Shown: in pieces, positions 1-55,067 of the stretch | How the letters are laid out: every line of letters starts with the position of its first letter | Numbering within the stretch: the first letter of the stretch is position 1 | From: a virus | IMG/VR virus record: IMGVR_UViG_3300042898_000786 | Coordinates: 1 to 64,000 of that record | DNA: 64,000 nucleotides | Strand: one strand, 5' to 3' | Notes under the pieces: model-generated | The model's database searches: none | Told to the model about the DNA's origin: nothing | The model's input: only the letters and a program-made list of their open reading frames with translations | Position numbers and translations under genes: made by a program

Positions 1-521
1 CTGAAAACGGTGGATTCACCGTAAAGCGTGGTAATGCCGCCAACGTATCGTTCCTGTGGGACGAGACAAACGACCGATTCACTACGGTTGACCAGCCATT
101 GCACGTCGGTAGCCTACCTTCACTAACACCGAGTGGAACAACGACCGACCACTTCATTATGCAGAGCAATGCAAATGGTCAAGCTGGAGTTCTTCGTTTG
201 GCTACGTTTACTGCGGTTGCTAACTATCTCGGTCTTCCCATACACTTCTCACTTGACGACGCTCAGGGTAATGTATCAAAGGCCGCTAACGCATACACGG
301 TTACTCACAACTTTGGGACTAAGGCTGTTATGGCTGAGGTTATTGCATACGCAACTCAAGAGACTGTTATTGTTGATATAACCAGACCCACAGTTAATAC
401 CATTGTAGTTACATTCGGTGGGGCGGTAACGGACAATACACACTACGTTGTATTACAAGCGTCAAAGCGCACTGGTGATACGGTAGCTGGCTCAGTAGAG
501 GGTGACGCTCCTGCCTCATAA
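1..521 (+). CDS. tail/virion structural protein, 5' truncated
   Basis: Frame open from position 3 (ENGGFTVKRGNAANVSFLWDETNDRF...THNFGT), fibre-like motifs, followed by terminator. Confidence 0.6.
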   Translation, partial: ENGGFTVKRGNAANVSFLWDETNDRFTTVDQPLHVGSLPSLTPSGTTTDHFIMQSNANGQAGVLRLATFTAVANYLGLPIHFSLDDAQGNVSKAANAYTVTHNFGTKAVMAEVIAYATQETVIVDITRPTVNTIVVTFGGAVTDNTHYVVLQASKRTGDTVAGSVEGDAPAS

Positions 522-551
522 CAATTAATTGCCAATAGCTAAGCAAATATA

Positions 552-580
552 GGGGGGGGCAATGGCCCCCCTTTTATTTT
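552..580 (+). terminator. intrinsic terminator
   Basis: GGGGGGC-AATG-GCCCCCC followed by TTTTATTTT. Confidence 0.8.
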
Positions 581-581
581 G

Positions 582-589
582 TACTTTTG
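582..589 (+). promoter_or_regulatory. Bacteroidota -7 promoter box TACTTTTG
   Basis: Matches TAnnTTTG just after terminator, upstream of tail fibre. Confidence 0.65.
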
Positions 590-615
590 CTTATGCTGTA
601 TAAGTTTGGTAAACT

Positions 616-5874: not shown

Positions 5875-5875
5875 T

Positions 5876-8800
5876 ATGGCAAATCTTTTAAGTACTACAT
5901 TATCGGGGAACAACCACATAACACTTGGTCCTAATGCAACTTGGTCATCATACTTAAGAGTTGGTGGCAATGGGTATAGTGTAAGTGGAAATGAATATGC
6001 TTCTGTAGTTACCACTAATGGAAACCTTCACCTTGATGCTGGTACTTCAAGGGCAATATACTTAAACCACTATGCTGGAACATCCGGTGTGGCTTTTGGA
6101 AATGGCGCATCTGGAGTTTCTGCTTGGATGGGTGCCGATGGAGACTTATGGAAGGGTAGCGGTGATAATTCTGGAACTCAGTATGTATACAACTCCGGGA
6201 CCTGGGGAATTAGTATTACGGGTAACGCAGGTAGTTTAGACGGCTATGACTATTCTCAATTTACTGGAGTTCTAGCTAGATATATCACTACTGCTAATAA
6301 TGGTACGAGAATTAGAATAACCGCTCCATTTAACACTGACTCAGGTAAGATGTTTAGTGTTGATATTACTATGTATGCTGGATATACTCAATATAAGTAT
6401 ACCGTTAGTGCTTATATGTATAGTACTACTAATCAATGGTATAATCCAAAAGCATTATTTACTGGCGACGGAGCTCCTGACATATATGTAGGTAGAGATA
6501 ACAGCGGTAAGGCTTATATAAGTATTGCCAATGGAGCCTATACTGGAATTGTAGTAAATAATTTAGTTGGTGGATACGTAGCTTCTGAAGTAGATTCTTA
6601 TAGTCCTTGGGTCATTACACTTGATTCCGGCAACGAAAACTCCGTAGGTGTTAGCGTCATAACGACTATCACATCTAATAACATCGGCTCTCAGTCTGTA
6701 AGCTATGCAACTACTGCGGGTTCTATAACCAGCCAGGCAAACTCTGCAACAATAACGGCAACTACGTCAAATACAGCAAATGCAATAGTATTAAGGGACG
6801 GAAGTGGTGATATATATTCTAGATATTCTTTTAGTAATTATGTCAACACAACTAACAATGATGAAAGCGGAATTACTAGATTCATAATTAAAAACGGGGA
6901 CGACTACCACAGGTCAGCCACTACAACCGTTGCCGCAGATATTATTAGAGGTGTTGCATCGGGAAGTTGGGCTATTAACATTACTGGTAGTGCTGGTTCC
7001 GTAACTAATGGAGTCTATACGACTCAAAGCATAAATAATCTTACTGGTGTTTTAAATTTTGGAGTACACAACGCGACCCCATACAACGACGCAACTGGAG
7101 TCAGCAACGGAATCGCCTTTGGTGGGATAGAGTCATCTACATTAAGGACATACGGCATTTTTACTGAATTAGAAAACATTGGAGGGAATTATTCTAAGTT
7201 AACATTAAATTACCACACCGGGATTAGAATTGGAGCATCTTCCTCGTACGGAGGAACAAGGTTTTACAATAATTTTGCGGGTGGTTCAGGCGGTGGCTCT
7301 GTGATATTTTCAGTAGGTAATGGAGATAACCACGTTAGAGTATTAAATAATTTATATGTTACAGGTACTGTAACTGGAAGTAATTTAAGTGGAACTAACA
7401 CAGGCGACCAGACTAATATATCAGGCAACGCTGCGACAGCTACAAGTGCGGGTACAGTAACTGGGTCTTCTACTATAGGAGGATATCTTACATTAGCTAC
7501 TGACTGGGGTGTAAGTCCTTACACAGCAGCTTTTAATATTGTTGGTACACATCCGTCAATGGTTTTTAGAGGCAGTAATGGAGATACACATTACTTAATC
7601 CATATGGATTCTGCTGGAGATATACAATATTATTTTGGACCAGGATATACAACTAATAACTGGACTCAAAGATATACGTTTACCAAAGGTGGGGACTTTA
7701 GTGTTCGTACTGGAAATATTTCAGCATCAGGTACAATTACTGGTTCTAACTTATCAGGCACTAACACAGGAGACCAAACTAATATTAGTGGTAATGCGGC
7801 AACTGCAACATATGCAACTACTGCGGGTGCATTAACCTCAATGAACATCTCTCAGTTCACAAATAATAGTGGATATATTACGGGTACTTATGTTGTTGCC
7901 AATGGAACCAGTGCTGGTGATATTGATGCCGATTGGGGTCAATCATTTAAAACCTTTGACCCGGTACCGAGCGGTACACCACCATTAGCATCACCAAATA
8001 TTAGAACAATAAACATTGGTGAGAACTATGCAAGAAGAACACAATTAGCATTTGATTATGCATCGGATGTTGCTTATTTTAGAAGAAGAAATGACAGTGG
8101 ATGGCAAACTTGGAGAGAGTTTATTCATAGTGGTAATATTGGTTCACAAACTGTAGCAACTGCTGGAAATGCCACAACAGTTGGAGGATTAGCCGTTCAC
8201 GCTGGTAGAAACAATGAAGTAAACAAAATTGTAAGAACAGATGCCAATGGATATATTCAAGCGGGATGGATTAACACAACTTCTGGAGCATTTTCAAGTG
8301 GTATAAATAAAATATATTGTTCTGATGATGACTATATGCGTTATCAAACTCCAGCAAACTTTATATCAAACTTGGGATTAATTACTACTGGTAATATAGG
8401 TTCTCAGTCAGTATCAACAGCAACAAATTTATATGGACTTGGTACCATACAATCAACTTCAACGGGAACATCTTATCAAAATAACTATCAAGTAAGAGAA
8501 AATTCCGGAGGTAGTGGAAATACAAGTGAGATATATGCACCTCAGTTAGCATTCCATTGGGGAGGTATTGTTGCTTCTAGTATTATGATGGAGTCTAGTG
8601 GTAGGATAGCTATTAGAAATAATCCAGGAAGTAGTTATGAGAACTTTATAGCTAATATAGTATACGCTTCCTCCGATATGCGTGCTCCTATCTTCTACGA
8701 TTCTCAGGACACTACATATTATTTAGACCCCAACAGTAGTGTGTCTGGAATTTTTGCAGGTAGTGTGGGAATCAATAACACATCTCCAGTTAATGCTAAT

Positions 8801-10249
8801 TGGGGTAACGCTAGTAATACAAAACAACTGTCCATTAATGCCACTGATTACGCAGTAATAAATCTTTTGGGGGGCTCTAGAAGATTCTCTATGGGGGTCG
8901 GTGATAACATATTTTATATGTGTTATGATAATACAGCTGGTAGACACAATATTACTGTAAGTAGTAGCGGTAGTGTTAGCATACCTGTTGATGTTAGGTC
9001 TCCAATTTTCTACGACTCACAGGATACTGCATATTACGGAGACTTTGCAAGCACGTCAAGAATGAATGCTATAGTTTATGATAATTTATATTTTTCAGGA
9101 GACCAAACGTATGGTTTTATTGGTAGGAATGTTTATGCTGATACTATTAACGGCAGAGGCTCCGACCCATTAGAATTAAACTATTATGATGGTGGTTCTG
9201 TAATCATAGGCACGGGTGCTACAGGAAGTAAGGCATTATATGCTGGTTCATTATTCTCTGGTGGTAGTGCTGTAATAACCGCAGCAAACATCGGCTCTCA
9301 GTCGGTAAGTTATGCTGCATCCGCTGGTGGTGTCTCTTGGGCTAATGTATCAAGCAAGCCATCCAGATGGCTTAATACTACAACCTTAATTGATAACAAC
9401 GAACCAGACACAATAACGGAAAGCGGATTCTGGCAAAGTTATCTTGGCTCTGGGAACCCAACTGGAACTTGGTTTAACTACGTTAATGTAAGGCACTCAA
9501 ATCCTGGGAATGCACACGGATTCCAATTAGGTATGTCTTACTACGACAATAACTTGTGGTTTAGAAGTTATTCGGGTAACGTAACATATCTGTCTTGGTC
9601 TAGGGCACTAGGAACAAACACTGACCCGTATCCATCAAATATGAACCAGTATGTGAGGACCACGGATGACGTTACTCACAACTCTACCACGTCTACGCTG
9701 TTCTTAGTAAACGGACACTCAGATAACACTAAAGGATACCGTATTCACAACACTAGCGGTTCATCTGTCAGTGCAATGTTTACCAACTCATCCAACCAGC
9801 TAGTAATAGCCGCAGGTGCGGTTGACCAGATAAACCTCAATAAGAAGGTATATGTAAACGGTGTGGCACTCGGTGTTAACGTAGCGCCATCAGCAACCGC
9901 TGGACGTATTGACGCCTCCAACGACATCGTGGCATTCTCATCCTCTGACGAACGTCTTAAGGATAACATCACACCCATTGAGAACGCACTTAACAAAGTG
10001 AAGTCACTCACCGGAGTAGAGTTTGACTGGAAGCCAGAACATAAGGAAGCACACGGACACGAAGGACGTGATACGGGTATCATAGCACAGCAGGTGTTAG
10101 CCGTTATGCCATCTGCCGTTAGGACTAACGATACAGGCTACCTAGCCGTACGCTACGAGAAGCTCATCGGTCTCTTGATTGAGGGTATGAAAGAGCAGCA
10201 GACACAGATTGATGAACTTAAAACTAAGCTAGATGGCCTTACAAAGTAG
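5876..10249 (+). CDS. second tail fibre with C-terminal peptidase S74 chaperone domain
   Basis: NIGSQSV, GTNTGDQTNISGNAATAT and PIFYDSQDT repeats; C-terminal SSDERLKDNI...GIIAQQV...YEKLIGLLIE. Confidence 0.85.
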   Translation: MANLLSTTLSGNNHITLGPNATWSSYLRVGGNGYSVSGNEYASVVTTNGNLHLDAGTSRAIYLNHYAGTSGVAFGNGASGVSAWMGADGDLWKGSGDNSGTQYVYNSGTWGISITGNAGSLDGYDYSQFTGVLARYITTANNGTRIRITAPFNTDSGKMFSVDITMYAGYTQYKYTVSAYMYSTTNQWYNPKALFTGDGAPDIYVGRDNSGKAYISIANGAYTGIVVNNLVGGYVASEVDSYSPWVITLDSGNENSVGVSVITTITSNNIGSQSVSYATTAGSITSQANSATITATTSNTANAIVLRDGSGDIYSRYSFSNYVNTTNNDESGITRFIIKNGDDYHRSATTTVAADIIRGVASGSWAINITGSAGSVTNGVYTTQSINNLTGVLNFGVHNATPYNDATGVSNGIAFGGIESSTLRTYGIFTELENIGGNYSKLTLNYHTGIRIGASSSYGGTRFYNNFAGGSGGGSVIFSVGNGDNHVRVLNNLYVTGTVTGSNLSGTNTGDQTNISGNAATATSAGTVTGSSTIGGYLTLATDWGVSPYTAAFNIVGTHPSMVFRGSNGDTHYLIHMDSAGDIQYYFGPGYTTNNWTQRYTFTKGGDFSVRTGNISASGTITGSNLSGTNTGDQTNISGNAATATYATTAGALTSMNISQFTNNSGYITGTYVVANGTSAGDIDADWGQSFKTFDPVPSGTPPLASPNIRTINIGENYARRTQLAFDYASDVAYFRRRNDSGWQTWREFIHSGNIGSQTVATAGNATTVGGLAVHAGRNNEVNKIVRTDANGYIQAGWINTTSGAFSSGINKIYCSDDDYMRYQTPANFISNLGLITTGNIGSQSVSTATNLYGLGTIQSTSTGTSYQNNYQVRENSGGSGNTSEIYAPQLAFHWGGIVASSIMMESSGRIAIRNNPGSSYENFIANIVYASSDMRAPIFYDSQDTTYYLDPNSSVSGIFAGSVGINNTSPVNANWGNASNTKQLSINATDYAVINLLGGSRRFSMGVGDNIFYMCYDNTAGRHNITVSSSGSVSIPVDVRSPIFYDSQDTAYYGDFASTSRMNAIVYDNLYFSGDQTYGFIGRNVYADTINGRGSDPLELNYYDGGSVIIGTGATGSKALYAGSLFSGGSAVITAANIGSQSVSYAASAGGVSWANVSSKPSRWLNTTTLIDNNEPDTITESGFWQSYLGSGNPTGTWFNYVNVRHSNPGNAHGFQLGMSYYDNNLWFRSYSGNVTYLSWSRALGTNTDPYPSNMNQYVRTTDDVTHNSTTSTLFLVNGHSDNTKGYRIHNTSGSSVSAMFTNSSNQLVIAAGAVDQINLNKKVYVNGVALGVNVAPSATAGRIDASNDIVAFSSSDERLKDNITPIENALNKVKSLTGVEFDWKPEHKEAHGHEGRDTGIIAQQVLAVMPSAVRTNDTGYLAVRYEKLIGLLIEGMKEQQTQIDELKTKLDGLTK

Positions 10250-10628
10250 TGGTGCAATAAGCATAGATAACATCAGGACAGAATTAGGTCAAGCACAGGC
10301 AAACAGCTCGTTGCGTGCGCTATCGGCATTGGCTAATTTTTCTTCTCCTGATGCTATGAGTGAGTTCTATGGCTTCTCCGCCGCAACTGAATACCAGTTC
10401 TATCAAGGAGACGGAGGGGGTTTTGGAAATTTCGCTGAGGCCTGCTCTGATGCATCGAATCCTTTAACTCTATATTCGGCATCTACGTCATTAGCGGTAA
10501 ATGTGTATCTATACAATGATGCTGCATTAACTAGTCCTTTTGACGGAGGTGGCCTATGGTATAAATATGGAGCATCAGTATATGAAATAAGAAACGGTGG
10601 TAAGATAGATGCTGTTCGTGGTTGCTAA
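10233..10628 (+). CDS. tail-fibre-associated virion protein
   Basis: MALQSSGAIS..IRTELG N-terminus typical of small genes after phage fibres. Confidence 0.6.
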   Translation: MALQSSGAISIDNIRTELGQAQANSSLRALSALANFSSPDAMSEFYGFSAATEYQFYQGDGGGFGNFAEACSDASNPLTLYSASTSLAVNVYLYNDAALTSPFDGGGLWYKYGASVYEIRNGGKIDAVRGC

Positions 10629-10665
10629 TCTTTTTGTATATTTGTATAACTAATTAGTAATCAAA

Positions 10666-11046
10666 ATGGCTGTAATCGCAACTGTAGATAAATTCGGGAT
10701 GACTTTCTCCGAAGCATATCATAAAATCACTCGTCTAACATACGAGTCAACCGACCAGAAAACATACATCTACGCGGCACCTGTGGCCGCTACCGTAGAT
10801 GCCGACGGTGCACCCGTGCCCACTATGCCTACGCCTCCCATGGAGACTTGGGTAAAGAAGAACTTCTGCCACATCGAGGTGGCTACCTACGCGACTGAAG
10901 AGACTCGTGAGAATCACTCTGAGCCTATCTATCGCACGCACCTTAACTTCGAAGCTATCGTTAGCGCCGAAGCCGCCGACATCATCGTTCAGGCATACGA
11001 GTACCTAAAGGCTCAGCCAGGATACGAAGATTCGGTAGACTGTTAG
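10666..11046 (+). CDS. putative tail fibre assembly chaperone
   Basis: Position, and C-terminal QAYEYLK...DC motif; TATATTTG box at 10637-10644. Confidence 0.5.
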   Translation: MAVIATVDKFGMTFSEAYHKITRLTYESTDQKTYIYAAPVAATVDADGAPVPTMPTPPMETWVKKNFCHIEVATYATEETRENHSEPIYRTHLNFEAIVSAEAADIIVQAYEYLKAQPGYEDSVDC

Positions 11047-15657: not shown

Positions 15658-16386
15658 ATGGCTGGTGTTTACCAAGTATATACGATACTCAAAAACTTAG
15701 CGAATAAAGACGAGCAGGGCTTTGTGACGCCACAAGCTTTTAACACTTTTGCGCCCGTGGCACAACAGAAGCTTGTTAATGACTTGTTCTCTAAGTTCGA
15801 TACTATCAACGCTGCCGCGAGAAGGAATTCCTATCAGCCACAGGACGTATCTCTTGAGAAGCGTCTTAGAGAAGACCTTTCTTTCTTTCATAAGTCTGCT
15901 AAGTTGAGTCGAGTTGCTGCGGCTTTCACTCTGCCTACTGATTTTATGCGTCTTATAAGTGTTCGAACAAACGGAGCGTTCCTGCTTAATCAGTCAACCT
16001 CTGAGCCATTGGATGTGCTTCACGAAATCCACAAGCTTGACGACATCTTATCAAATGATATGCTGCGTCCCACCAGTGCCAATCCGCTAGCCGTTATGGA
16101 AAACGGAATTACGCTATACCCGAATGCGGTTTCAAATATAGTTATCTACTATTACAAAAAGCCTCAAGGTAAGCTTGCAACGACTGGAGCTAAGAGCGCA
16201 GGTAACCCAAGGTTTGGATACACTCTAGTAGGCACTAAGGAGGTATACTCTGCCGCGAACAGCATTGACTTTGAATTACCAGCCCATTACGTTCCAGACT
16301 TAGTCGCTGAAATTGCCAAAATGATTGGCGTAAGCATTAGTAGTGCTGACGTGTATAACTACGCAGTACAAGAAGAGAATAAGTAA
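15658..16386 (+). CDS. head-tail ring protein
   Basis: NKDEQGFVTPQAFN...YYKKP...DFELP motifs typical of crAss-like ring proteins. Confidence 0.6.
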   Translation: MAGVYQVYTILKNLANKDEQGFVTPQAFNTFAPVAQQKLVNDLFSKFDTINAAARRNSYQPQDVSLEKRLREDLSFFHKSAKLSRVAAAFTLPTDFMRLISVRTNGAFLLNQSTSEPLDVLHEIHKLDDILSNDMLRPTSANPLAVMENGITLYPNAVSNIVIYYYKKPQGKLATTGAKSAGNPRFGYTLVGTKEVYSAANSIDFELPAHYVPDLVAEIAKMIGVSISSADVYNYAVQEENK

Positions 16387-17189
16387 TGGCAAGGAATATA
16401 GTAACACTGTCCCAGGTAATATCTAACTTCAAAATATTAAACGAAGCTGATAGTTACTGTGCTGGAACAAGCGACACCGTAATTAGAGCTCTTGCTCTAC
16501 GCGGAATCCGAGAGATGGGATTCGATATGATGAAGCGAATCCGTTCGCTACGTTTACCAGTAAACACCTCTCTGAGTACAGTAGACCTGCCGGATGATTT
16601 TGTTGACCTCACTAAGATTGGATACGTAGGACTTGATGGCCTAGTATATGTGTTCGGTGAGAATAAGAATATTAACTATTCACAATCATACGTTATGCCA
16701 ATGATTGATTCAGATGGCGATGGCGTGTACGACAGGGAGGATGATAAGGATTTATCTGGTTCGTCTTCAGGCATCCAAAGTGGTCAGGAGTCATTCTTAT
16801 TTAACAACTATCTGTACGGAAATACGTACGGAGCTCTGTACGGTCTTGGTGGCGGTCAGTATAGCGGTCAGTACCGACTAAACCTTGACCAGAACAGAAT
16901 TGAAATATTTCCCGCTGGAGGTGCTAACGAGGTTGTCATCGAATACATTGCCGACGAAGCCCGTTCATCTAATCCTAGTGTACACATATACTTAGAGCCA
17001 GCTTTAAACTCATACATATACTATAAGATTGTAGAGCGTAAGGCTATCGTCCCGTCTAACGAAAAGGCTAGGGCAAGGCAAGAATACTATAACGAAAAAA
17101 GAATTGCTAATTCAAGGATAAAAAGCTTTAGCAAGGAAGAGGCGCTTAAGACTATTCGCAAGAACTTCAAGCAATCTCCTAAGTATTAA
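16386..17189 (+). CDS. tail ring protein
   Basis: LPDDFVDLTKIG, VIEYIAD motifs; includes a DSDGDGVYD Ca-binding-like loop. Confidence 0.6.
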   Translation: MARNIVTLSQVISNFKILNEADSYCAGTSDTVIRALALRGIREMGFDMMKRIRSLRLPVNTSLSTVDLPDDFVDLTKIGYVGLDGLVYVFGENKNINYSQSYVMPMIDSDGDGVYDREDDKDLSGSSSGIQSGQESFLFNNYLYGNTYGALYGLGGGQYSGQYRLNLDQNRIEIFPAGGANEVVIEYIADEARSSNPSVHIYLEPALNSYIYYKIVERKAIVPSNEKARARQEYYNEKRIANSRIKSFSKEEALKTIRKNFKQSPKY

Positions 17190-44437: not shown

Positions 44438-44769
44438 AGTTCGTATGTGCTGTTTAACGTGTTGAATTTAATATAATCCTCTCGCTCCTCCAAAATTTCT
44501 GTAACAGGGCTAGTTTGCCAAGTAAAAAACTGGTTAAATGGAGACATAATTAGTGAATAACCAATTGCTGGTTTATCGTGACGGGCTTTAAACTTATTTT
44601 CTCCATTCCATTCAACCCACATCACTTCCTTAGATTGGTTGGTTAGTCCGTCTCGTTCACGAACTAATTTCCAATTGAATTCGTTTTCAATTACATTTTG
44701 TTCAAGAGCAACTTTCAAGACATTATCTTCTAATGTCATTGGAATTTTAGTTTGTTTTAACTTGCTCAT
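44416..44769 (-). CDS. hypothetical protein
   Basis: Starts in junction repeat ATG; WQTSPVTEI...FNTLNS.YEL. Confidence 0.65.
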   Translation of the reverse strand: MSKLKQTKIPMTLEDNVLKVALEQNVIENEFNWKLVRERDGLTNQSKEVMWVEWNGENKFKARHDKPAIGYSLIMSPFNQFFTWQTSPVTEILEEREDYIKFNTLNSTYELWKLKKD

Positions 44770-44781
44770 TTCTCGTTGGTG

Positions 44782-44934
44782 TTAAGGGTTAAGCAATAGC
44801 CAAACGCCAAACCACAGGTGCAATATAATTGACCCAATAGCGCCAAACATTTTTGGTAACTCTTTTTGTTTTGACGCTGTTACGCCTGCGCCTACTGCTC
44901 CGAGAAGGAGGTAGATTGCGATAATTGTTTTCAT
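44782..44934 (-). CDS. small two-TM membrane protein
   Basis: MKTIIAIYLLLGAVGAG...LWFGVWLLLNP; bounded by junction repeats. Confidence 0.55.
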   Translation of the reverse strand: MKTIIAIYLLLGAVGAGVTASKQKELPKMFGAIGSIILHLWFGVWLLLNP

Positions 44935-45182
44935 TTCTCTTTGGTTTTAAATCGTAAACTGTAGTATTCTTCTGCGATGCCGCTATTAGGGTCGAGGTGC
45001 TGCATTTCCATACCTGTGTGGAATGACTCTATGATTTCAGCCATCTCTTTCTCAAGCATTGATTCTGCCTCATCAATTACATTAGACAATGCTTTTTGAT
45101 AACCAGTCTGCCACTCATTTGATGCGGTCATTTGTTCTGCCTTAAGACTTTGAATAAGTTCTTGCATTGGTGTCTTCTTCAT
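44931..45182 (-). CDS. hypothetical protein
   Basis: MKKTPMQELI...FKTKEK. Confidence 0.6.
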   Translation of the reverse strand: MKKTPMQELIQSLKAEQMTASNEWQTGYQKALSNVIDEAESMLEKEMAEIIESFHTGMEMQHLDPNSGIAEEYYSLRFKTKEK

Positions 45183-45216
45183 AAGCAAATTTATTTGCGG
45201 TGAGGAGCCTTGCGAC

Positions 45217-45357
45217 TCATTTCTCGTTGGTTTTAAGCATTTCGTTTAGTTCAAGCATCAACTCAAATGTGTCAATGAGTTCATCAGTTGGTTCATCCTC
45301 CCGATGTATTAAACTTTGAGGCATTCCTATTTCTATAATTTCAAGTATCCTTTTCAT
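45217..45357 (-). CDS. small acidic protein
   Basis: MKRILEII...LKTNEK; bounded by repeats. Confidence 0.5.
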   Translation of the reverse strand: MKRILEIIEIGMPQSLIHREDEPTDELIDTFELMLELNEMLKTNEK

Positions 45358-45369
45358 TTATCGTTGGTG

Positions 45370-45588
45370 TTAAAGGTTTTCAATTTCAAAATATTCATAA
45401 TATTCCTTAACCTCTTTTTTGGTTAATGCCTTTACCCAATCTTTACTTGCGTACAACGGCATTGATTTTCTCCCGTGAGGTTCTACTACAATTTCATCTA
45501 TGTCGCATTGTGATTGCAATTCTACATCAGATATTGATGCAAGAACCCATACCAATGTTTGATTTTTAATTTCGTCAGTTATTTTCAT
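45370..45588 (-). CDS. hypothetical protein
   Basis: Bounded by repeats. Confidence 0.55.
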   Translation of the reverse strand: MKITDEIKNQTLVWVLASISDVELQSQCDIDEIVVEPHGRKSMPLYASKDWVKALTKKEVKEYYEYFEIENL

Positions 45589-45776
45589 TTCTCGTTGGTT
45601 TTGTATTCTTTATCAAAAGAATCTGCAATCTCACGGGTGGTCAAATCTCCGTACTTGAAAGCGAAGTCAATCATCTGCTCCTTCTCAATTCTTTTTGCTT
45701 CTCTAATATCAAGTGGTGTGATTGTACCTTGCATCTCCCACATATTAACAAGCCACTCTACTGCTGTTTTTTTCAT
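45585..45776 (-). CDS. hypothetical protein (KTAVEWL family)
   Basis: MKKTAVEWL...AKRIEKEQMID...YKTNEK. Confidence 0.65.
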   Translation of the reverse strand: MKKTAVEWLVNMWEMQGTITPLDIREAKRIEKEQMIDFAFKYGDLTTREIADSFDKEYKTNEK

Positions 45777-45834
45777 CTCTCTAAAATTTAATTGGTTTTG
45801 TTTGCCCTCATTTAACCGCATCAGGCTTCTCGGT

Positions 45835-45996
45835 TTATTTCTCTTTGGTGTTAGTCTTCCACTGGTATTCGCACTTGCCGTCCTTAATAGGTGAGTTCAT
45901 AAAGTAGGATTGATACATATCTTCGGAGGCAGTGAATCGGTAGCAGGTCATCTTGAGGTCGCAATTTGCGCCACTACATTTAGTTATGTCGGTCAT
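45835..45996 (-). CDS. small Cys-rich protein
   Basis: MTDITKCSGANCDLKMTCYRF...CEYQWKTNTKEK. Confidence 0.65.
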   Translation of the reverse strand: MTDITKCSGANCDLKMTCYRFTASEDMYQSYFMNSPIKDGKCEYQWKTNTKEK

Positions 45997-46019
45997 TTTT
46001 ATTTAATTTAAAAGAAAAA

Positions 46020-46086
46020 GACTCCGTTAATCAGGGCGGTAGCTTGCCGCTTACTGAATCCTAATGCGCCATAAGCGGGCGGAGTT
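46020..46086 (-). ncRNA. structured RNA element or terminator
   Basis: ACUCCG/CGGAGU closing stem, internal hairpins, followed by U tract. Confidence 0.4.
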
Positions 46087-46087
46087 C

Positions 46088-46216
46088 TCATTTCTCTTTG
46101 GTGTTAAATTCATTTTCAGTATAGAAGTCCGTGCCTTCGTTGTCTTCTGGTTCGATGCCATTCTTAATCATATCAACGATTAACAACAGCTCGGTCATTG
46201 TCAGTTCTATTTTCAT
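46088..46216 (-). CDS. small acidic protein
   Basis: MKIELTM...EFNTKEK. Confidence 0.5.
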   Translation of the reverse strand: MKIELTMTELLLIVDMIKNGIEPEDNEGTDFYTENEFNTKEK

Positions 46217-49546: not shown

Positions 49547-50074
49547 TTATTTTGATAGTCTTTCTTTAGCATTATTAAACATCTCCTCCATATTACGGAG
49601 AGACGCGGTGTCGGGAGTATTCTCCCAATCGCGAAGCATTATCTGCTTCACGTCTTCGAATGTGCAGTCTTTCTTCATCGTCATAACGAGTGTCTCTAGT
49701 TGTACTTGAAACTCGTCTAGGTTATTGAAGAAGAAGTACTCATAGAACTGAAGGCAAAAGTCGAAGTCTTTTCCGTTCTCGTAGTACGTATGCCCAGCAA
49801 AACACACACCTATCTCGTCATACTCAAGGCGTATGGAGACGGAGTGCTTACTTGATATCTCTTTGAGCATATCGTGTGGTGGTACCCAAGCACTAGGCCC
49901 GCTTACCATAAGGATGATGTCATCCCTCTCGATAGAATCTATCTTCCATCTAGGAGGCTCCGTCTCAAGACCCGTATCTCTACGTTCCTTGTGCGCTTTG
50001 AATATCTCAGAGACGGCATCTAGTTCTGAATCTTGGCCGTGTATGACTAAGAAGTTATTACATAGGTTTGGCAT
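49547..50074 (-). CDS. YubB/DUF1281-like ferredoxin-fold protein
   Basis: MPNLCNN...SAWVPP...YDEIGVCFAG. Confidence 0.65.
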   Translation of the reverse strand: MPNLCNNFLVIHGQDSELDAVSEIFKAHKERRDTGLETEPPRWKIDSIERDDIILMVSGPSAWVPPHDMLKEISSKHSVSIRLEYDEIGVCFAGHTYYENGKDFDFCLQFYEYFFFNNLDEFQVQLETLVMTMKKDCTFEDVKQIMLRDWENTPDTASLRNMEEMFNNAKERLSK

Positions 50075-50180
50075 TATCGATTTGTTTTTGCAGTTCTTTG
50101 ATTTTATCTTGAAGTTCTTTGTTGTAATCCTCAAGGGCTTTGATTCGATGCATTAAATACATTGTTTGTGAGTCTACCAT
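50058..50180 (-). CDS. small coiled-coil protein
   Basis: MVDSQT...RIKALEDYNKELQDKIKELQKQ. Confidence 0.5.
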   Translation of the reverse strand: MVDSQTMYLMHRIKALEDYNKELQDKIKELQKQIDNAKPM

Positions 50181-50204
50181 TTGTTTATTTGTTTTTAAAG
50201 TAAA

Positions 50205-50264
50205 GTGAAAATAAGGAGCCGTGCCTCCTTATCTCACCAAACAAAATATCGTTACACGGACGAT
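50205..50264 (-). ncRNA. two hairpins with complementary loops
   Basis: AUCGU-CCGUGUA-ACGAU and AUAAGGAG-GCACGG-CUCCUUAU. Confidence 0.5.
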
Positions 50265-50270
50265 TGTACA

Positions 50271-50840
50271 TTAGGACAATGCTGTTTTTAGTTGCTCTCG
50301 AGTCATATCTGCCTCGTCTGCTAGCCAATTTAGGAACGTGTCAACTTGATTGACACGCACTACGATATCAGTAGCGGTAGAGAACACGTTGCTAGTCTGA
50401 GCGAATATGAACCATACGGGTACGGGAGGAATCAGTTTGCCATCCGCGATGTTCTCGAAGAACTCGTTGAAGTCCCACTTCCACTTTACGTCATCCCACG
50501 AGCCTGTAGACCACCCATTGGCGATACACTCGTATCCATCAGCAAGTTCTACGTTTACATACCCACGCCAAGCGCTAGTAGACTTCCACTCTGCACTCTT
50601 GATGCATTGCGGTGGGCCGTCAACTTCCTCGCAGTCTTCATAGTCTCGGGTCTTGTCTAGGCTATAAGCGTAGTCGGTTCTGACTAACTGCTCATCAAGA
50701 TTGTACTCGTACACCTTAACGGATGACTCCCAATGAGAGTAGTAGCAGTCCTCGCATAGCACGTTGTCTTCCTTGTCATAGTTGGAATAGTCGTTCTCTG
50801 AAATCTCGTAGTCGCAGTTACTGCATTTATTGGTTTCCAT
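50271..50840 (-). CDS. early protein with N-terminal CxxC..CxxC
   Basis: CSNC...CEDC; SAWRGY; TSNVFS. Confidence 0.65.
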   Translation of the reverse strand: METNKCSNCDYEISENDYSNYDKEDNVLCEDCYYSHWESSVKVYEYNLDEQLVRTDYAYSLDKTRDYEDCEEVDGPPQCIKSAEWKSTSAWRGYVNVELADGYECIANGWSTGSWDDVKWKWDFNEFFENIADGKLIPPVPVWFIFAQTSNVFSTATDIVVRVNQVDTFLNWLADEADMTREQLKTALS

Positions 50841-51324
50841 CTTCTGATTCTTTTATGGTGATAAACGCAGACTTGAGGTCTTCGCCTAGATTAATTATTT
50901 GACGTTCTATGATTGTGAAATCAATAAGTTTGTTTAGCGTTGAGTCATCATTCGCCTCCTTAAACTTTACTGCACTCCGCAAAAAGACAGCATAAGATGC
51001 TAGCAAAGAGCGCATACTTGTATCTTCGATGCTATCTGCAAATTTAGCAAGCATTTGAGGCTTTGAGTCTTTCTTCGGCTTTCTACCTCGGATATGCTTT
51101 AGGTCGTGGTCGGCCACATACCAACCGCATCCTTCTCTTATAGTAATACCCTCGTTGTTACCTTTGTGCCCATTCACATCCTCGTCAAACTCAATGAGAA
51201 ACGATGTCTCTGATTCGGCAAAGACTATCGTTGCTTGTTTGCCGATTGCCTCGGGCGCACTTGGTGCGCTTGTCGCACTTCTAGGATTATAGACCACGCG
51301 GTCTCCAGTTTTAAATGTTTTCAT
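50827..51324 (-). CDS. early protein with SH3/KOW-like N-terminus
   Basis: MKTFKTGDRV...IEFDE...GH..G..GWYV; leader ACAAATAGAAATT. Confidence 0.6.
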   Translation of the reverse strand: MKTFKTGDRVVYNPRSATSAPSAPEAIGKQATIVFAESETSFLIEFDEDVNGHKGNNEGITIREGCGWYVADHDLKHIRGRKPKKDSKPQMLAKFADSIEDTSMRSLLASYAVFLRSAVKFKEANDDSTLNKLIDFTIIERQIINLGEDLKSAFITIKESEDGNQ

Positions 51325-51337
51325 AATTTCTATTTGT

Positions 51338-51562
51338 TTATAATTGGTGTTCGGTAATGTATAGTCGGATGGTTTGGTAGTCATCTACCTCAACAAAGTA
51401 TTCGGACTCTTCATCGCAGTATACTTGTTTGATTTCGTGCCTTTCATTTATTGACTTCTTAGTTGAGTCAAAGAAGTACTGCGCTGCACTTTTTGCGCCA
51501 AAGGCTTCGTGGTCATTAAGGTCGAGGTCGGAATGAGTCTCGTGAAGGATGTAGAATTTCAT
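51338..51562 (-). CDS. early hypothetical protein
   Basis: ORF with A-rich leader. Confidence 0.6.
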   Translation of the reverse strand: MKFYILHETHSDLDLNDHEAFGAKSAAQYFFDSTKKSINERHEIKQVYCDEESEYFVEVDDYQTIRLYITEHQL

Positions 51563-51581
51563 AGTTGTTATTGTTTATTAG

Positions 51582-51998
51582 TTATTGAATCGTGAACCAA
51601 TCTTCGTCCATATTGAACTCATCGATTTGTGCTTGACTAACGAACGCTTCGCAGTACCACGAATCGCCTCCGTCACTATTGCTAGTTAGGTCTGCCGATA
51701 CGTTACTACCTAGCAAGGTTTCCCACTCACGGGTGAAGTCGTTAAGGTCTTCCTCAGTTCCGACAAAGTATGTCCACACTCGAAGTTCATTTGCTTCTTC
51801 GTGGCCTCCCTCCATCACTACTATATTGCCTAACTCTAGCACTTTCTTGAGTTCTTCCTCACTAGTAATTAGCGCCTCATTCAGTTCATCATTAAGTTCA
51901 AATAGTGGTACACTATTGGTTGCCCATAGAGCCAAGGCTAGGTCGGTTACGTTTACGAATGTGAATCCGTCTTCAGTTTTAATTATTCGATTTTCCAT
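51582..51998 (-). CDS. early acidic protein
   Basis: ORF with leader ACAAATAGAAACT. Confidence 0.65.
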   Translation of the reverse strand: MENRIIKTEDGFTFVNVTDLALALWATNSVPLFELNDELNEALITSEEELKKVLELGNIVVMEGGHEEANELRVWTYFVGTEEDLNDFTREWETLLGSNVSADLTSNSDGGDSWYCEAFVSQAQIDEFNMDEDWFTIQ

Positions 51999-52017
51999 AG
52001 TTTCTATTTGTTATTGA

Positions 52018-52227
52018 TTAAAGTTCTAAAACTGCTAGTGAAAGGTTGCCCTCTCGGTCAAACCATCCCTCCTTGATTAAGGCGGTGGCAGTTCGGCCAT
52101 AGTGGCCTTGAAGTTCCCAAGCCAAGCCACTACGGACTAGTTCGGCAAAGAGGCACACGACTTCTTGGTCGTTGAGTGCGCCTTGTTCGTATGCGATGAT
52201 GTTCGCGATTTGTGATGTGTTGTTCAT
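52018..52227 (-). CDS. conserved early phage protein
   Basis: IIAYEQG...LF.ELV.SGLAW.LQGHYGRTA. Confidence 0.75.
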   Translation of the reverse strand: MNNTSQIANIIAYEQGALNDQEVVCLFAELVRSGLAWELQGHYGRTATALIKEGWFDREGNLSLAVLEL

Positions 52228-52242
52228 ACTGATTATCTATTT

Positions 52243-52294
52243 GGTTAAGATGCCTCACGGCATTTCGGCTAATGTCAAGCCTCTTCAGTTAACC
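52243..52294 (-). ncRNA. type I hammerhead ribozyme (AUC site)
   Basis: GGUUAA CUGAAGA GGCU-UGACAUU-AGCC GAAA UGCC-GUGA-GGCA UC^ UUAACC. Confidence 0.9.
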
Positions 52295-52471
52295 TTTGTT
52301 TTGCTCCACAAACTTTTCTAAAATGTCGAGAAGTTCGTCACCACATTTGTCTAACCTATCTTGAAGTTCGGGCGAAAGGTCGCTTGACTCAAGGTTGAAT
52401 TCCTCGCACACTGAGTCGAACAGCAAATCAATTTGAGAGGTAAGGATTCCGTAGATATTTTCGTTTTTCAT
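52289..52471 (-). CDS. small acidic protein flanked by hammerheads
   Basis: 60 aa; stop TAA lies in stem I of the downstream ribozyme. Confidence 0.7.
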   Translation of the reverse strand: MKNENIYGILTSQIDLLFDSVCEEFNLESSDLSPELQDRLDKCGDELLDILEKFVEQNKG

Positions 52472-52486
52472 AATTTCTATTTGTTT

Positions 52487-52537
52487 GGTTAAGACCTACC
52501 GAAGTAGGTTTCGGGCATTAGCCCTCATCAGTTAACC
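52487..52537 (-). ncRNA. type I hammerhead ribozyme (GUC site)
   Basis: GGUUAA CUGAUGA GGGC-UAAU-GCCC GAAA CCUAC-UUCG-GUAGG UC^ UUAACC. Confidence 0.92.
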
Positions 52538-52716
52538 TGCCACTCAGTAAGCGTAGTCCAACCGAATGCCGTCACGATACCGCGCCTCTGAAGTTGTTCT
52601 AGAACTTTGTACTCTTTAGTGGTATCTGCACCCAAGACAGACTCTACGCTATAAAAGGGTATGTCGGTTGCGATGCCGTCAACATACTCGCGGAAAAAGA
52701 AATTGTAAGTGTTCAT
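52528..52716 (-). CDS. early hypothetical protein
   Basis: Stop TGA is the UGA of the ribozyme CUGA core. Confidence 0.6.
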   Translation of the reverse strand: MNTYNFFFREYVDGIATDIPFYSVESVLGADTTKEYKVLEQLQRRGIVTAFGWTTLTEWQVN

Positions 52717-52745
52717 ATTGTTTGGATTTAGTTATTGAATTGTGT

Positions 52746-53102
52746 TTAGTTTTGGTCTCTATGGATTACGTTCACCAACTGAATGGCGGCATTGTCACCG
52801 ATAAATTCACGGGCAGTGAGGTATGCCTCTGTGCGGCTCACTCGCAGTCCTCCTAAGAGGAAGTCGAATAGTGTGCCGTTCGTACTTTCTACGCTACGTA
52901 CAAATACCGACTGATTGGTCAGTAATTTCATTAGCGACTTCACTAATTCAGCCTTGGTGTCGAACGCTTTTCGGGCGCTCCCTTGGCGAAGATTACCGAC
53001 TTGTAGGAGTTTAGTGGTCTCTGCCTTGTCGGTGTAACGAATCAAGAATTCTACTTCGCGAGTTGTCTTTTTGCTTTGTAGTCTAACTTTGAACTCTCCC
53101 AT
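52746..53102 (-). CDS. first early protein
   Basis: Start refined to MGEFKV after A-rich leader. Confidence 0.6.
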   Translation of the reverse strand: MGEFKVRLQSKKTTREVEFLIRYTDKAETTKLLQVGNLRQGSARKAFDTKAELVKSLMKLLTNQSVFVRSVESTNGTLFDFLLGGLRVSRTEAYLTAREFIGDNAAIQLVNVIHRDQN

Positions 53103-53136
53103 TTTGATTTGATTTTTGAATTGATAAAAGAAAATT

Positions 53137-53186
53137 TGAGAGGGCGTTTGGTCTCGAACCAACGGCAACTAAATTGCTACGCCCCC
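53137..53186 (-). ncRNA. anticodon-less tRNA-like element
   Basis: GGGGGCG UA GCAA-UUUAG-UUGC C GUUGG-UUCGAGA-CCAAA CGCCCUC UCA. Confidence 0.65.
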
Positions 53187-53189
53187 AAT

Positions 53190-53590
53190 TGAACATCAAC
53201 TTAGGGGTACCTTATCGTGTCGTTATGTGCAGTGATGCCGTGGTTCCACCGCAACGAGGTTGTCAGTCCTAAGAAGCACTAAGGAGCAGATGAGCATCGT
53301 TGTATCCGTGTAGCATATGTTCTAAGAACTCATACGACCAAGGTCGCTCCGCTACACATCAACAAACCCGAACTCCATCACCACTCAGTAGCCGTACGTA
53401 CATCAAAGTGCCGTGCGGTCATCTACCTAGTCGTGCGGAACTCCGCTCGCTTAGTGGTCACTATGGTTATGGGTTCAAGCCCCAAGGCACGCTTTTCGCT
53501 TACCATCTTCCTCGGCCCGCCTTACGGCTTCGTCCTCGAGGTGACCTCAACTCGTTTCCCTATTTGGGCGCAGTCGGTCGGTGACACTGC
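53190..53590 (-). ncRNA. putative large structured leader RNA
   Basis: GC-richer than flanks, many nested hairpins, no credible ORF, directly downstream of promoter. Confidence 0.55.
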
Positions 53591-53622
53591 AATACTACAA
53601 CAATCTAGATACGTTTGTCAAG
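53590..53622 (-). promoter_or_regulatory. early promoter
   Basis: TTGACA ... TAGTATTG on minus strand. Confidence 0.55.
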
Positions 53623-54545
53623 TGTTGTTCAAAAAATAATTGTAAGTTGCTGAGAATCAGCGAGAAAAATTTCCACTCTGAATTATAATGTGTCTCTTAC
53701 GCGTGTCATATTAATATACTAGCACCTGAGAACATAAGCCTAGCCTAGCAAGCACGTGCCGCTCTAGTATGCATTGAGCGTAGTGGGGGGAAGTGGGTTG
53801 AAGTGGGAGTAAGTGAGAGTGCTTAGGGGTAAGGTGTGGGGATTGTTGGAGGGTTCTGAGGTACTCGAACCATAACCCAAAACTAGTTGGCGGTAGGGTA
53901 GGAGCGGAGCCTACAACGGAGCCAATTAACATAATATATATTATAGGATGCTTTTGGACACCGATTGCAACTCCGATACTAGAGCGAGGTAGGTCAAGGA
54001 TAGTAGCACGTCCTAGTATGGCTACCAAAAGGCTAAAACATTGCAAGTGAATCATTTAACACGGAGGGGCATACGTTCAGCATTCCGTTTCGGTTCTTGG
54101 CTTGTAACGCTATTATAGTACGATAATCCCCACGGTACGTATAACTCAAACCAGAAATGCGATAACCGCATCCCGGAAGATTGCGTAATTCTGTTCAACA
54201 CATATGCTTGTCCTTTGCAATGTGAACAGATTCTTATGTTATTTCTCGGAAGCGCATAGTTGCGCCTTTGCAAACGTAGTAAAAGTTAGAGCCTTGTTTG
54301 CAGTATCCGAATCAAGCTTTGGCCGGCTCCTTTTGCGCGGGGCGGTTTGGCCGCCCGCTTTTTCCGCCGTCTTAAGCGTTCTATTCGTTTTCGGTATTAG
54401 AAGCTTGCAGTCTATTAAGAGGAAGCTCTGCTTTAGCGAAGTTATAGTTAAAAATCGACATTAGCAAGTTTTTTACACACACTTATAATAGTCGTTATCA
54501 ATTAGTTGACTAATAACCTACTAATTTAGTATGTGTTTATTCTGC

Positions 54546-55067
54546 CTAAAGTGAGTCCTGGGACTGCAAGAACATACGAAAATGGGTTTTCTCGTCCACC
54601 ATAATGGGTATCCTTCCGTGTATCTTATCTAGGTATCTCTTCACCACTCTTCTTCCTGCTATGCTGATGTTGAATCTAGCTGTTTGTTTATTGTTGCGTG
54701 CTGAGATGATTGGAAGGTCGTAGTCCTGAGCTGGGGAGTACTGCTTTAGGTGACCGCCATCTACCATAGGCTGTACTACCATATCCATAAAGTTGTCGAA
54801 CCGTCCTGTATAACCGAACGCACACATAGTATAGCGTATCGAGAATATCTCCAGGTCGTATACGAAGAACAGGAACATAAGCTGTCTCTGGTCTATGTTA
54901 TAGCTATTCTTGGCGTCTGTGAACACGTGGTTCAACAGCTTCAGTATATTATACTGGTCGTGGACAAGGTCCTTTCGCTCTCTGTGCTCGTCGATTCGTT
55001 TTGCTTGAAGCTCTGCCATACGGCGTAGTTTCTCACTACGAGAGGGTTTCTTTCTGTAGCTCGGCAT
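54546..55067 (-). CDS. putative winged-helix regulator
   Basis: LFFVYDL...MVDGGHL...FNISIAGRRVV pattern; divergent from endolysin. Confidence 0.5.
   Translation of the reverse strand: MPSYRKKPSRSEKLRRMAELQAKRIDEHRERKDLVHDQYNILKLLNHVFTDAKNSYNIDQRQLMFLFFVYDLEIFSIRYTMCAFGYTGRFDNFMDMVVQPMVDGGHLKQYSPAQDYDLPIISARNNKQTARFNISIAGRRVVKRYLDKIHGRIPIMVDEKTHFRMFLQSQDSL

Follow-up and report, generated by a model that had tools for sequence, protein, structure and literature searches.

The first 64,000 nucleotides of the 75.8-kb IMG/VR virus record IMGVR_UViG_3300042898_000786 (hereafter called the window) contain, between positions 50205 and 53622, a series of small genes interspersed with RNA elements of several different kinds, all on the minus strand. 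In the direction of transcription, it comprises a promoter, a long non-coding leader RNA, a 47-nt tRNA-like minihelix (mini-tRNA), two open reading frames (ORFs), a hammerhead ribozyme (HH-A), a third ORF, a second hammerhead (HH-B), five further ORFs and two hairpins, in the very order given by an initial annotation made from the sequence alone. We consider it fairly probable that this region is an operon of an Elemovirus-like phage of Flavobacteriia, transcribed by the host polymerase, in which the eight small accessory genes share a primary transcript punctuated by RNA elements that can replace one another. The initial annotation had proposed a single coherent RNA-based system for cutting the early transcript into stabilised units; support was found neither for one co-adapted system, nor for stabilisation of the pieces, nor for the operon being an early one, and the elements look like interchangeable modules shuffled by recombination.

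Both hammerheads are of type I and contain the complete catalytic core (CUGA(U/A)GA ... GAAA ... U-C). HH-A (52537..52487, minus strand) is built of stem I GGUUAA/UUAACC, CUGAUGA, stem II GGGC/GCCC, GAAA, C17 and a stem III of 7 bp counting the A15.1-U16.1 pair, and HH-B (52294..52243, minus strand) of the same stem I, a CUGAAGA core, stem II GGCU/AGCC with a 7-nt loop and a stem III with a GUGA loop. Cleavage is predicted between 52493 and 52492 in HH-A and between 52249 and 52248 in HH-B, i.e. in either case 21 nt before the AUG of the following gene (at 52471 and 52227, respectively). A descriptor comprising the core and the three stems finds only these two sites in the 75.8-kb genome, compared with 0.003 per dinucleotide shuffle, and a covariance model of the family described below assigns them 69.2 and 64.5 bits, both sequences being among its seed. 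With their full cores, three helices, a frequency far beyond chance and covariation in the family, the two ribozymes recognized in the initial annotation are well founded.

A search pattern derived from HH-A and HH-B retrieved at least 154 instances from at least 120 viral contigs, often two to four per contig; in bacterial genomes it is rare, with 8 matches, of which those on long contigs are mostly from Bacteroidota. In 106 aligned members the core is invariant, stems II and III use all four types of Watson-Crick pairs, 98.5% of the cells are paired, and double changes are found in 11 of the 16 pairs. The covariation score amounts to 0.589 vs 0.123 in shuffles (0 of 500 reach the observed value), and it collapses when the partners are slid against each other. 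It must be noted that the family was gathered by a pattern fixing stem I and filtered by a descriptor that asked for 3 or more pairs in stem II and as many in stem III, a procedure that favours pairing, so that these figures are somewhat inflated. The invariance of stem I was rejected as a family trait, being partly an artefact of the search pattern, and covarying variants of stem I exist in the same loci and in Elemovirus. Loop II has the sequence UNANU in 135 members. A pseudoknot of loop II with the flanks was considered as the tertiary contact needed for fast cleavage; over four flank positions scored, all on the downstream side, no mutual information with the loop emerged. One core variant, the third hammerhead of its locus (L071:2285-2333), carries an additional U after A9, ahead of stem II (CUGAGGA-U-GGGU...).

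The position of the family members with respect to genes is also regular. In 164 members (among the matches listed), the preceding ORF terminates within the ribozyme or at its 5' edge; its stop codon is a UAA belonging to stem I, the core UGA, or a codon at most ~15 nt ahead of the ribozyme. The first AUG follows 18-24 nt after the predicted cut in ~75% of 157 unique members (again among the matches listed), and the ORFs downstream are small, with a median of 73 aa. HH-A and HH-B match this context exactly, with the upstream stops on UGA and UAA, respectively, and 21-nt leaders.

The mini-tRNA (53186..53140, minus strand), identified by a descriptor match and by folding, consists of a 7-bp acceptor stem (GGGGGCG/CGCCCUC), U8-A9, a 5-bp hairpin (GCAAU-UUA-GUUGC) and a T arm with the loop UUCGAGA, and it ends 37 nt before the AUG at 53102. 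It has the features of a tRNA-like minihelix, namely a 7-bp acceptor stacked on the T arm, a loop of the UUCRANN type, no decoding capacity (the anticodon arm is missing) and a location beside a gene. It does not qualify as a tRNA, as it does not form a cloverleaf with D and anticodon arms, and ARAGORN reported neither tRNA nor tmRNA in the window. From its sequence, a cut by RNase P is predicted between 53187 and 53186. The acceptor/T-arm descriptor, which was written after the element had been seen, gives a single match in the genome vs 0.04 per shuffled genome (8 of 200 shuffles match). The element is thus present as the initial annotation described it, with acceptor stem, hairpin and T arm; among viral contigs, its 22-mer was found in one other phage only (G001).

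The best support for this element comes from comparison with related loci. In four of them (L121-L124), a homologue of the 118-aa gene that follows the mini-tRNA (63-91% identity) stands directly behind a series made up of a promoter region homologous to the window's, a mini-ORF of 15 codons and a family hammerhead; at the corresponding place, the window holds the leader RNA and the mini-tRNA. As judged from these alignments, the mini-tRNA occupies a slot that the relatives fill with a hammerhead. The descriptor applied to 120 hammerhead loci (among the matches listed) yielded 20 mini-tRNA-like elements of 41-58 nt, vs 1.07 in shuffles. Wherever such an element and a hammerhead share a locus, they lie on the same strand; some of the elements stand right after a stop codon and others terminate long ORF-free leaders. 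In addition, one locus (L061:1247-3591) contains on one strand, within 2.4 kb, a twister-P1 (47.9 bits, under the Rfam cut-off of 67.2), a family hammerhead and two mini-tRNAs of 41-42 nt, and in another one (L037) a type I hammerhead and a mini-tRNA are accompanied by a hammerhead of type III (42 bits).

The arrangement at the head of the operon also recurs with other RNAs. A phage contig that shares the 138-aa gene of the window at 89% nucleotide identity (L007) carries a different, 51-nt mini-tRNA before its counterpart of the 62-aa gene, and no ORF is found in the 700 nt or more that lead up to this mini-tRNA; mini-tRNAs of this type keep their hairpin through compensatory changes. It belongs to a group, termed class B here, with the order: perfect promoter (TTTG, 19 nt, TATGTTTG), non-coding RNA of ~650 nt, 51-nt mini-tRNA, gene and hammerheads. 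The class-B RNA and mini-tRNA are linked in all 14 viral contigs (L031:5985-6688, L007:2588-3339 and 12 further contigs: L008, L057, L058 and L140-L148). Nine of the class-B contigs were chosen only via the mini-tRNA, and all nine have the RNA of ~645 nt directly upstream; in six of these nine, which were not selected through hammerheads, one to four family hammerheads follow downstream on the same strand, the remaining three having little or no downstream sequence. For 12 copies of the class-B RNA, RNAalifold predicted 146 pairs, and compensatory double changes occur at 28 of these. This RNA corresponds to no Rfam family and is a candidate for a new large phage RNA; an RNase P-like identity, considered on account of a GGAAAGUCC motif, was rejected, with no RNase P match at E = 10. 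The best Rfam match of the class-B mini-tRNA is mascRNA-menRNA (20.3 bits, E = 0.22, below the cut-off of 42.5). A third, unrelated version (class C) shows the same order. Thus, at the level of sequence, the succession of promoter, non-coding RNA, mini-tRNA and hammerhead-punctuated genes recurs with unrelated RNAs in related phages of Bacteroidota, and the co-occurrence of the elements in related genomes, which the initial annotation had suggested as a check, is confirmed at the level of architecture.

The promoter of the window (53590..53621, minus strand) comprises a -33 element TTG(ACA) with the TTG at 53621-53619, a 21-nt spacer and a -7 element TAGTATTG at 53597-53590, and departs by 1 mismatch from the Bacteroidetes TAnnTTTG type. 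A scan with the consensus alone is at chance level (12 sites found vs 10.7 expected); the region is homologous to the promoter regions of two relatives (L122 and L071), and Bacteroidetes promoters matching TTTG / TAnnTTTG perfectly are present in relatives. From 53590 down to 50200, the minus strand has no promoter-like site of either type that we could find, so the individual promoters of each gene that would have contradicted the initial annotation did not turn up inside the unit. The genes, separated by spacers of 19-61 nt or overlapping, are best described as one tightly packed unit.

Downstream of the promoter lies the leader RNA (53187..53585, minus strand; ~330-400 nt). It is closed in all six frames and none is opened by any single reassignment of a stop codon, by which a coding or recoded leader is ruled out. 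In a lake metatranscriptome (X24), a single 328-nt contig with a depth of 43 falls wholly inside 53249-53578, beginning ~7 nt after the expected start site, and the abundant species accordingly covers 53578-53249. The depth is 0 across the 0.9 kb upstream of the leader and 0-5 on the gene regions (from relatives), a profile that would not be produced by carry-over of DNA. The X24 run contains only 6% of the sampled words, hence uncovered parts are not evidence of absence, and its gene-region contigs derive from relatives with different flanks, which makes them uninformative on cleavage. The leader is therefore a real, abundant RNA, and a candidate new phage RNA with weak characterisation.

Searches for relatives of the leader in databases and among the related loci gave little. 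With Rfam, there was no match in the whole window at gathering thresholds, nor in 53100-53600 at E = 10, including GOLLD, ROOL, HEARO, 6S-Flavo, tmRNA and RNase P RNA; nhmmer against 1.18 Mb of related loci returned G001 alone, and a 20-mer searched in JGI metagenomes gave one chance match to an unrelated GC-rich contig. The folding energy is ordinary (z = -1.24). Of 9 variant sites of the leader (in G001 and the sequencing runs X24, X7 and X13), 4 disrupt predicted pairs, 3 fall on unpaired positions and 2 leave a predicted pair intact, so there is no covariation and the known variants do not back the minimum free energy model. The 'large structured leader' of the initial annotation has hence proved to be large and abundantly expressed, but not demonstrably structured. 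G001 is 99.4% identical (0.59% divergence) over a block that begins at the -33 element and extends 25 nt beyond the mini-tRNA, while the 527 nt upstream of this block are 7.6% different. We considered this low divergence as evidence of selection and found it weakened, as mosaic recombination explains it equally well.

Taking together the sequence anatomy, the covariation within the hammerhead family, the equivalence of the slots, the co-occurrence of the elements and the abundance of the leader RNA, we infer a series of cleavage events, the enzymes involved and a benefit to the phage as follows. Transcription would start near 53585 at the Bacteroidetes-type promoter, and the non-coding RNA of ~330-400 nt would be made first and accumulate. 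The mini-tRNA, a 47-nt mimic of the top half of a tRNA, would most likely be cut by the host, by RNase P on the 5' side and by RNase Z or exonucleases on the 3' side, thereby separating the non-coding RNA from the coding part. HH-A and HH-B would cut themselves, and in each case the upstream gene would keep its stop codon and end in a folded ribozyme with a cyclic phosphate, while the downstream gene would receive a 5'-OH and a standard unstructured, A-rich leader of 21 nt. A hairpin with a U tail would end the unit. The likely benefit is that the stability and translation of neighbouring cistrons become uncoupled: once cut, cistrons would be insulated from their neighbours in hosts that initiate on unstructured A-rich leaders, and they might perhaps also be shielded from 5'-end-dependent decay.

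Several points weigh against this scheme. The abundant RNA contig comes to an end at 53249, leaving 62 nt up to the mini-tRNA, and the mini-tRNA itself has a depth of 0; this does not point to RNase P at 53187/53186 as the source of the RNA's 3' end. The sole RNA run was read as contigs, which cannot define transcript ends. The leader and mini-tRNA of the window are known from just one other phage (G001, 99% identical) and therefore have no covariation of their own, and a neighbouring 5.3-kb stretch is also 98.5% identical to G001 (1.45% divergence). Rfam on 53100-53260 at E = 10 gives no match at the mini-tRNA, whose T stem has only 4 standard pairs. The hammerheads do not reach the Rfam thresholds (18.6 bits vs 52 for the HH9 model, E = 0.65; no match to RF00163 at E = 10), and their loops II are of 4 and 7 nt instead of the usual 5-nt UNANU. 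That Rfam misses them is due to its models and does not speak against the hammerhead fold.

A different emphasis is possible, albeit only about half as credible to us as the punctuated operon: the leader may constitute an RNA gene in its own right and be what the module actually delivers, with the mini-tRNA as the signal for maturation of its 3' end and the downstream genes merely sharing its promoter. RNase P cleavage at a tRNA-like element makes the 3' end of the long RNAs MALAT1 and MEN-beta, and mascRNA, the element of MALAT1, would be the counterpart of the mini-tRNA. The RNA would then have a job early in infection, e.g. as a decoy, anti-defence or antitermination RNA. It is consistent with this possibility that the leader is ~10 times more abundant than the gene regions, and that leader and mini-tRNA are swapped as a unit against mini-ORF and hammerhead (L122) or against the class-B RNA and its mini-tRNA (L007). 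The constant linkage of the latter pair, the 28 compensatory pairs in the class-B RNA and the sub-threshold match of its mini-tRNA to mascRNA-menRNA point in the same direction. However, the leader of the window itself lacks relatives, an Rfam family, covariation and an exceptional folding energy, its abundance could equally be that of a stable processed leader fragment, and the RNA contig ends short of the mini-tRNA. Besides, this possibility is compatible with the punctuated operon rather than exclusive of it. A broader form of the idea, which we put forward tentatively, is that phages of Bacteroidota build operons of small genes with interchangeable punctuation (self-cleaving hammerheads and twisters, and host-dependent mimics of the top half of a tRNA) and that the RNA with its mini-tRNA is a counterpart, in bacterial viruses, of MALAT1/mascRNA, delivering an abundant and hitherto undescribed early RNA with a function of its own. 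The RNAs so regarded, with the same reserve, would be the window's RNA of ~330-400 nt and the covarying class-B RNA of ~650 nt.

It is less likely that the mini-tRNA of the window plays no part in processing, being the remains of a decayed tRNA or a fold due to chance, and that the leader is a mere long 5' untranslated region (UTR). Such a view would agree with the failure of ARAGORN and Rfam to find anything, the post hoc descriptor with its matches in 8 of 200 shuffles, the single near-identical copy known and the RNA depth of 0 over the element. On the other hand, it would leave aside the ~19-fold enrichment of such elements in related loci, the hammerhead held in the same slot by four relatives, and the different mini-tRNA of L007 before the homologue of the window's second gene, with its hairpin kept by compensation.

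Somewhat more doubtful still is the proposition that hammerheads and mini-tRNAs persist mainly as DNA-level boundaries of cassettes, i.e. as short conserved sequences through which phages could acquire, drop or exchange single small genes by recombination (or which spread as small insertions), with RNA cleavage being secondary. In its favour, G001 and an X13 variant lack exactly the stretch between the GGTTAACTGA shared by HH-A and HH-B; the joint leads from 52284 to 52528 with 11 letters shared (L128:11979-12032) and removes the cassette of the 60-aa gene. The gene content adjoining the hammerheads varies among close relatives. Moreover, the two strands of stem I together make up the palindrome GGTTAACC, interrupted by the core, which gives each hammerhead the appearance of an insertion into TTAA, and hammerhead-less junctions of this genome also read TTAAC. 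Yet stems II and III covary freely around an invariant core, which only selection on the RNA fold explains, and the fixed spacing of 18-24 nt to the AUG together with the placement of the stop codons points to a role at the RNA level. Selection at the RNA level as indicated by covariation is therefore to be put first; as a second theme, the sequences suggest that hammerheads act as recombination borders of single-gene cassettes.

Some further observations concern these junctions. The GGTTAACC palindrome contains a HpaI site, and stem I is formed by 52531-52537 with 52487-52492 in HH-A and by 52288-52294 with 52243-52248 in HH-B. One relative is represented by an RNA contig in which the same gene follows a junction lacking a hammerhead (...GTAAGTAA-CCAAAUAG...), and hammerhead-less junctions elsewhere in the genome read TAA-CACCAACGAGAA-ATG. 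In 44766-46112 of the window (minus strand), seven small-gene junctions share TTAACACCAACGAGAAATG, which includes the stop, a 12-nt spacer and the start; the family covariance model (R1) finds no hammerhead in this region.

At the 3' end of the unit, two hairpins were identified: a small one of 5 bp with the loop CCGUGUA (50248..50264, minus strand) and a terminator-like one of 11-14 bp with the loop GCACGG and a U-rich tail (50205..50238, minus strand). The latter has the GC-containing stem (11 pairs, 50235-50208) and U run of an intrinsic terminator, and terminator-like sites in the region occur at chance density (5 found vs 5.0 expected). The loops are complementary over 5-6 nt (CCGUG(U) at 50259-50253 and CACGG at 50224-50219), so that of the 'kissing-loop hairpins' of the initial annotation, the hairpins and the complementarity of their loops stand, but not the kissing interaction. 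That they form a kissing complex or an antiterminator switch regulating read-through into the next genes we regard as very improbable: the chance of such complementarity for one loop pair is ~0.6% (an estimate, 6 registers x 4^-5), but the pair was picked out after the sequence had been read, terminator-like sites are no more frequent than expected, and neither hairpin exists in two relatives that encode a homologue of the last gene (L122 and L009), G001 being identical and hence uninformative.

The eight genes of the unit, all on the minus strand, are small. The first encodes 118 aa (52746..53102, with the ATG at 53102) and is the one with homologues in L121-L124; it is followed by ORFs of 62 aa (52528..52716), which terminates on the UGA within the CUGA of the HH-A core, and of 60 aa (52289..52471), whose stop is the UAA within stem I of HH-B and whose cassette is missing from G001 and the X13 variant. 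Downstream of HH-B lie ORFs of 69 aa (52018..52227), 138 aa (51582..51998), 74 aa (51338..51562), 185 aa (50827..51384) and 189 aa (50271..50840), the last one with a Cys-rich N-terminus. Searches of PHROGs and Pfam with the ORFs of the operon gave DUF7417 / phrog_3908 in the 69-aa ORF as the sole match; blastn of 50000-54600 against GenBank phages gave no match, and an 81-nt hammerhead query gave chance matches in Fusobacterium phages only. The starts of the genes have A-rich 5' leaders without a Shine-Dalgarno sequence.

As for the surroundings, a 173-aa gene on the minus strand (54546-55067) is missing in L122, which has 53 nt instead, indicating an indel between relatives. The segment 53700-54545 is gene-free over ~850 nt, contains C-rich direct repeats (CTCCCACT-like) and has an RNA depth of 0; relatives have iteron-like AGATATAATTATCTGG repeats at the matching place, and the segment is a candidate for an origin of replication or for a region involved in packaging. 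The end of the record (its last ~10.8 kb; window 1-10800 and L127) repeats its start with an offset of 65,054 bases; the unit genome is thus ~65 kb, circularly permuted or terminally redundant in the assembly. The sequencing runs containing the stretch are lake and freshwater metagenomes. The terminase is ~39-45% identical to terminases of Flavobacterium and Cellulophaga phages, and the genome plan is Elemovirus-like, in that small minus-strand genes are arrayed next to the replication genes and one of the structural proteins is a giant DUF3293 protein.

The purpose of ribozymes between phage genes has been a standing question since 2011, when several hammerheads between small genes of one phage transcription unit were described, as in the window (Perreault et al. 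2011, PMC3088659). The clustered prophage hammerheads in that work are active in vitro, and the role suggested for them was to divide long phage transcripts into mRNAs the length of a gene; a hammerhead of a halovirus ('HHphage') is located 13 nt before a start codon, with a mapped transcript 5' end within 3 nt of the cut (PMC3088659). Unlike the set described there, the hammerheads reported here form a type I subfamily mostly from Bacteroidota phages, with a 6-bp stem I (mostly GGUUAA/UUAACC in the sample), a 4-bp stem II with a UNANU loop, the upstream stop codon as part of the ribozyme and a leader kept at ~21 nt, are below the Rfam thresholds, and are mixed with tRNA mimics in the same slots. 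The exchange of a hammerhead for a tRNA mimic in one slot argues that the selected property is the cut itself and not the chemistry of the ribozyme. Given the stop within the ribozyme and the AUG ~21 nt past the predicted cut, in hosts without Shine-Dalgarno initiation, the hypothesis of translational insulation is testable.

A cultured handle on this family is provided by the Flavobacterium phage vB_FspP_elemoE_6-9C (NC_055854.1), an Elemovirus in culture with its host Flavobacterium sp. BAL314, which has a family hammerhead at 16302-16363 (51 bits, minus strand). It is a distant relative of the phage studied here, with a 39% identical terminase, the giant DUF3293 structural protein and the array of small minus-strand genes, and its hammerhead has the stem I GGCAAA/UUUGUC. 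No counterpart of the leader RNA or the mini-tRNA turned up in it, the search having been made with the hammerhead model only and not for mini-tRNAs. Its annotated gp65 (16289-16396), a plus-strand 'hypothetical protein', overlaps the hammerhead on the opposite strand and is probably not a gene.

Punctuation by tRNA-like structures has a precedent in organelles. The t-elements of plant mitochondria are reported to be non-decoding tRNA-like structures located between genes or beside them, at which RNase P and RNase Z make mRNA ends (Forner et al. 2007, PMC1920247). The present case differs in that it concerns a bacterial phage, that the 47-nt element is limited to an acceptor stem, a T arm and one small hairpin, and that cleavage is predicted. 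We found no description of tRNA-like punctuation in phages in the literature. If RNase P does cut the tRNA mimics, the maturation of phage mRNA would depend on an essential host ribozyme, and a case from a bacterial virus would be added to the tRNA punctuation of organelles. Ribozyme-punctuated phage operons (2011) and tRNA-like punctuation in organelles being already in print, what appears to be new is, on the sequence side, the clean slot swap and the head module of RNA and mini-tRNA in three unrelated versions; new as well are the evidence for expression of the head RNA and the cultured relative with a family hammerhead.

The head of the operon resembles MALAT1 and MEN-beta with mascRNA (RF01684) in that an abundant long non-coding RNA is directly followed by a tRNA-like element. 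Unlike the phage module, that system is eukaryotic and nuclear, there is no homology, and the resemblance extends to a sub-threshold match for the class-B element and to none for that of the window.

In the early region of phage T7, one polycistronic transcript is cut between genes by RNase III, leaving stabilising 3' hairpins. The role proposed here for the punctuation marks would parallel that of the T7 sites, as the initial annotation suggested, and of synthetic ribozyme insulators, with the difference that in T7 the cuts are made at hairpins by a double-strand-specific protein enzyme of the host, whereas in the present operon they are proposed to be made by the RNA itself and by enzymes of tRNA processing.

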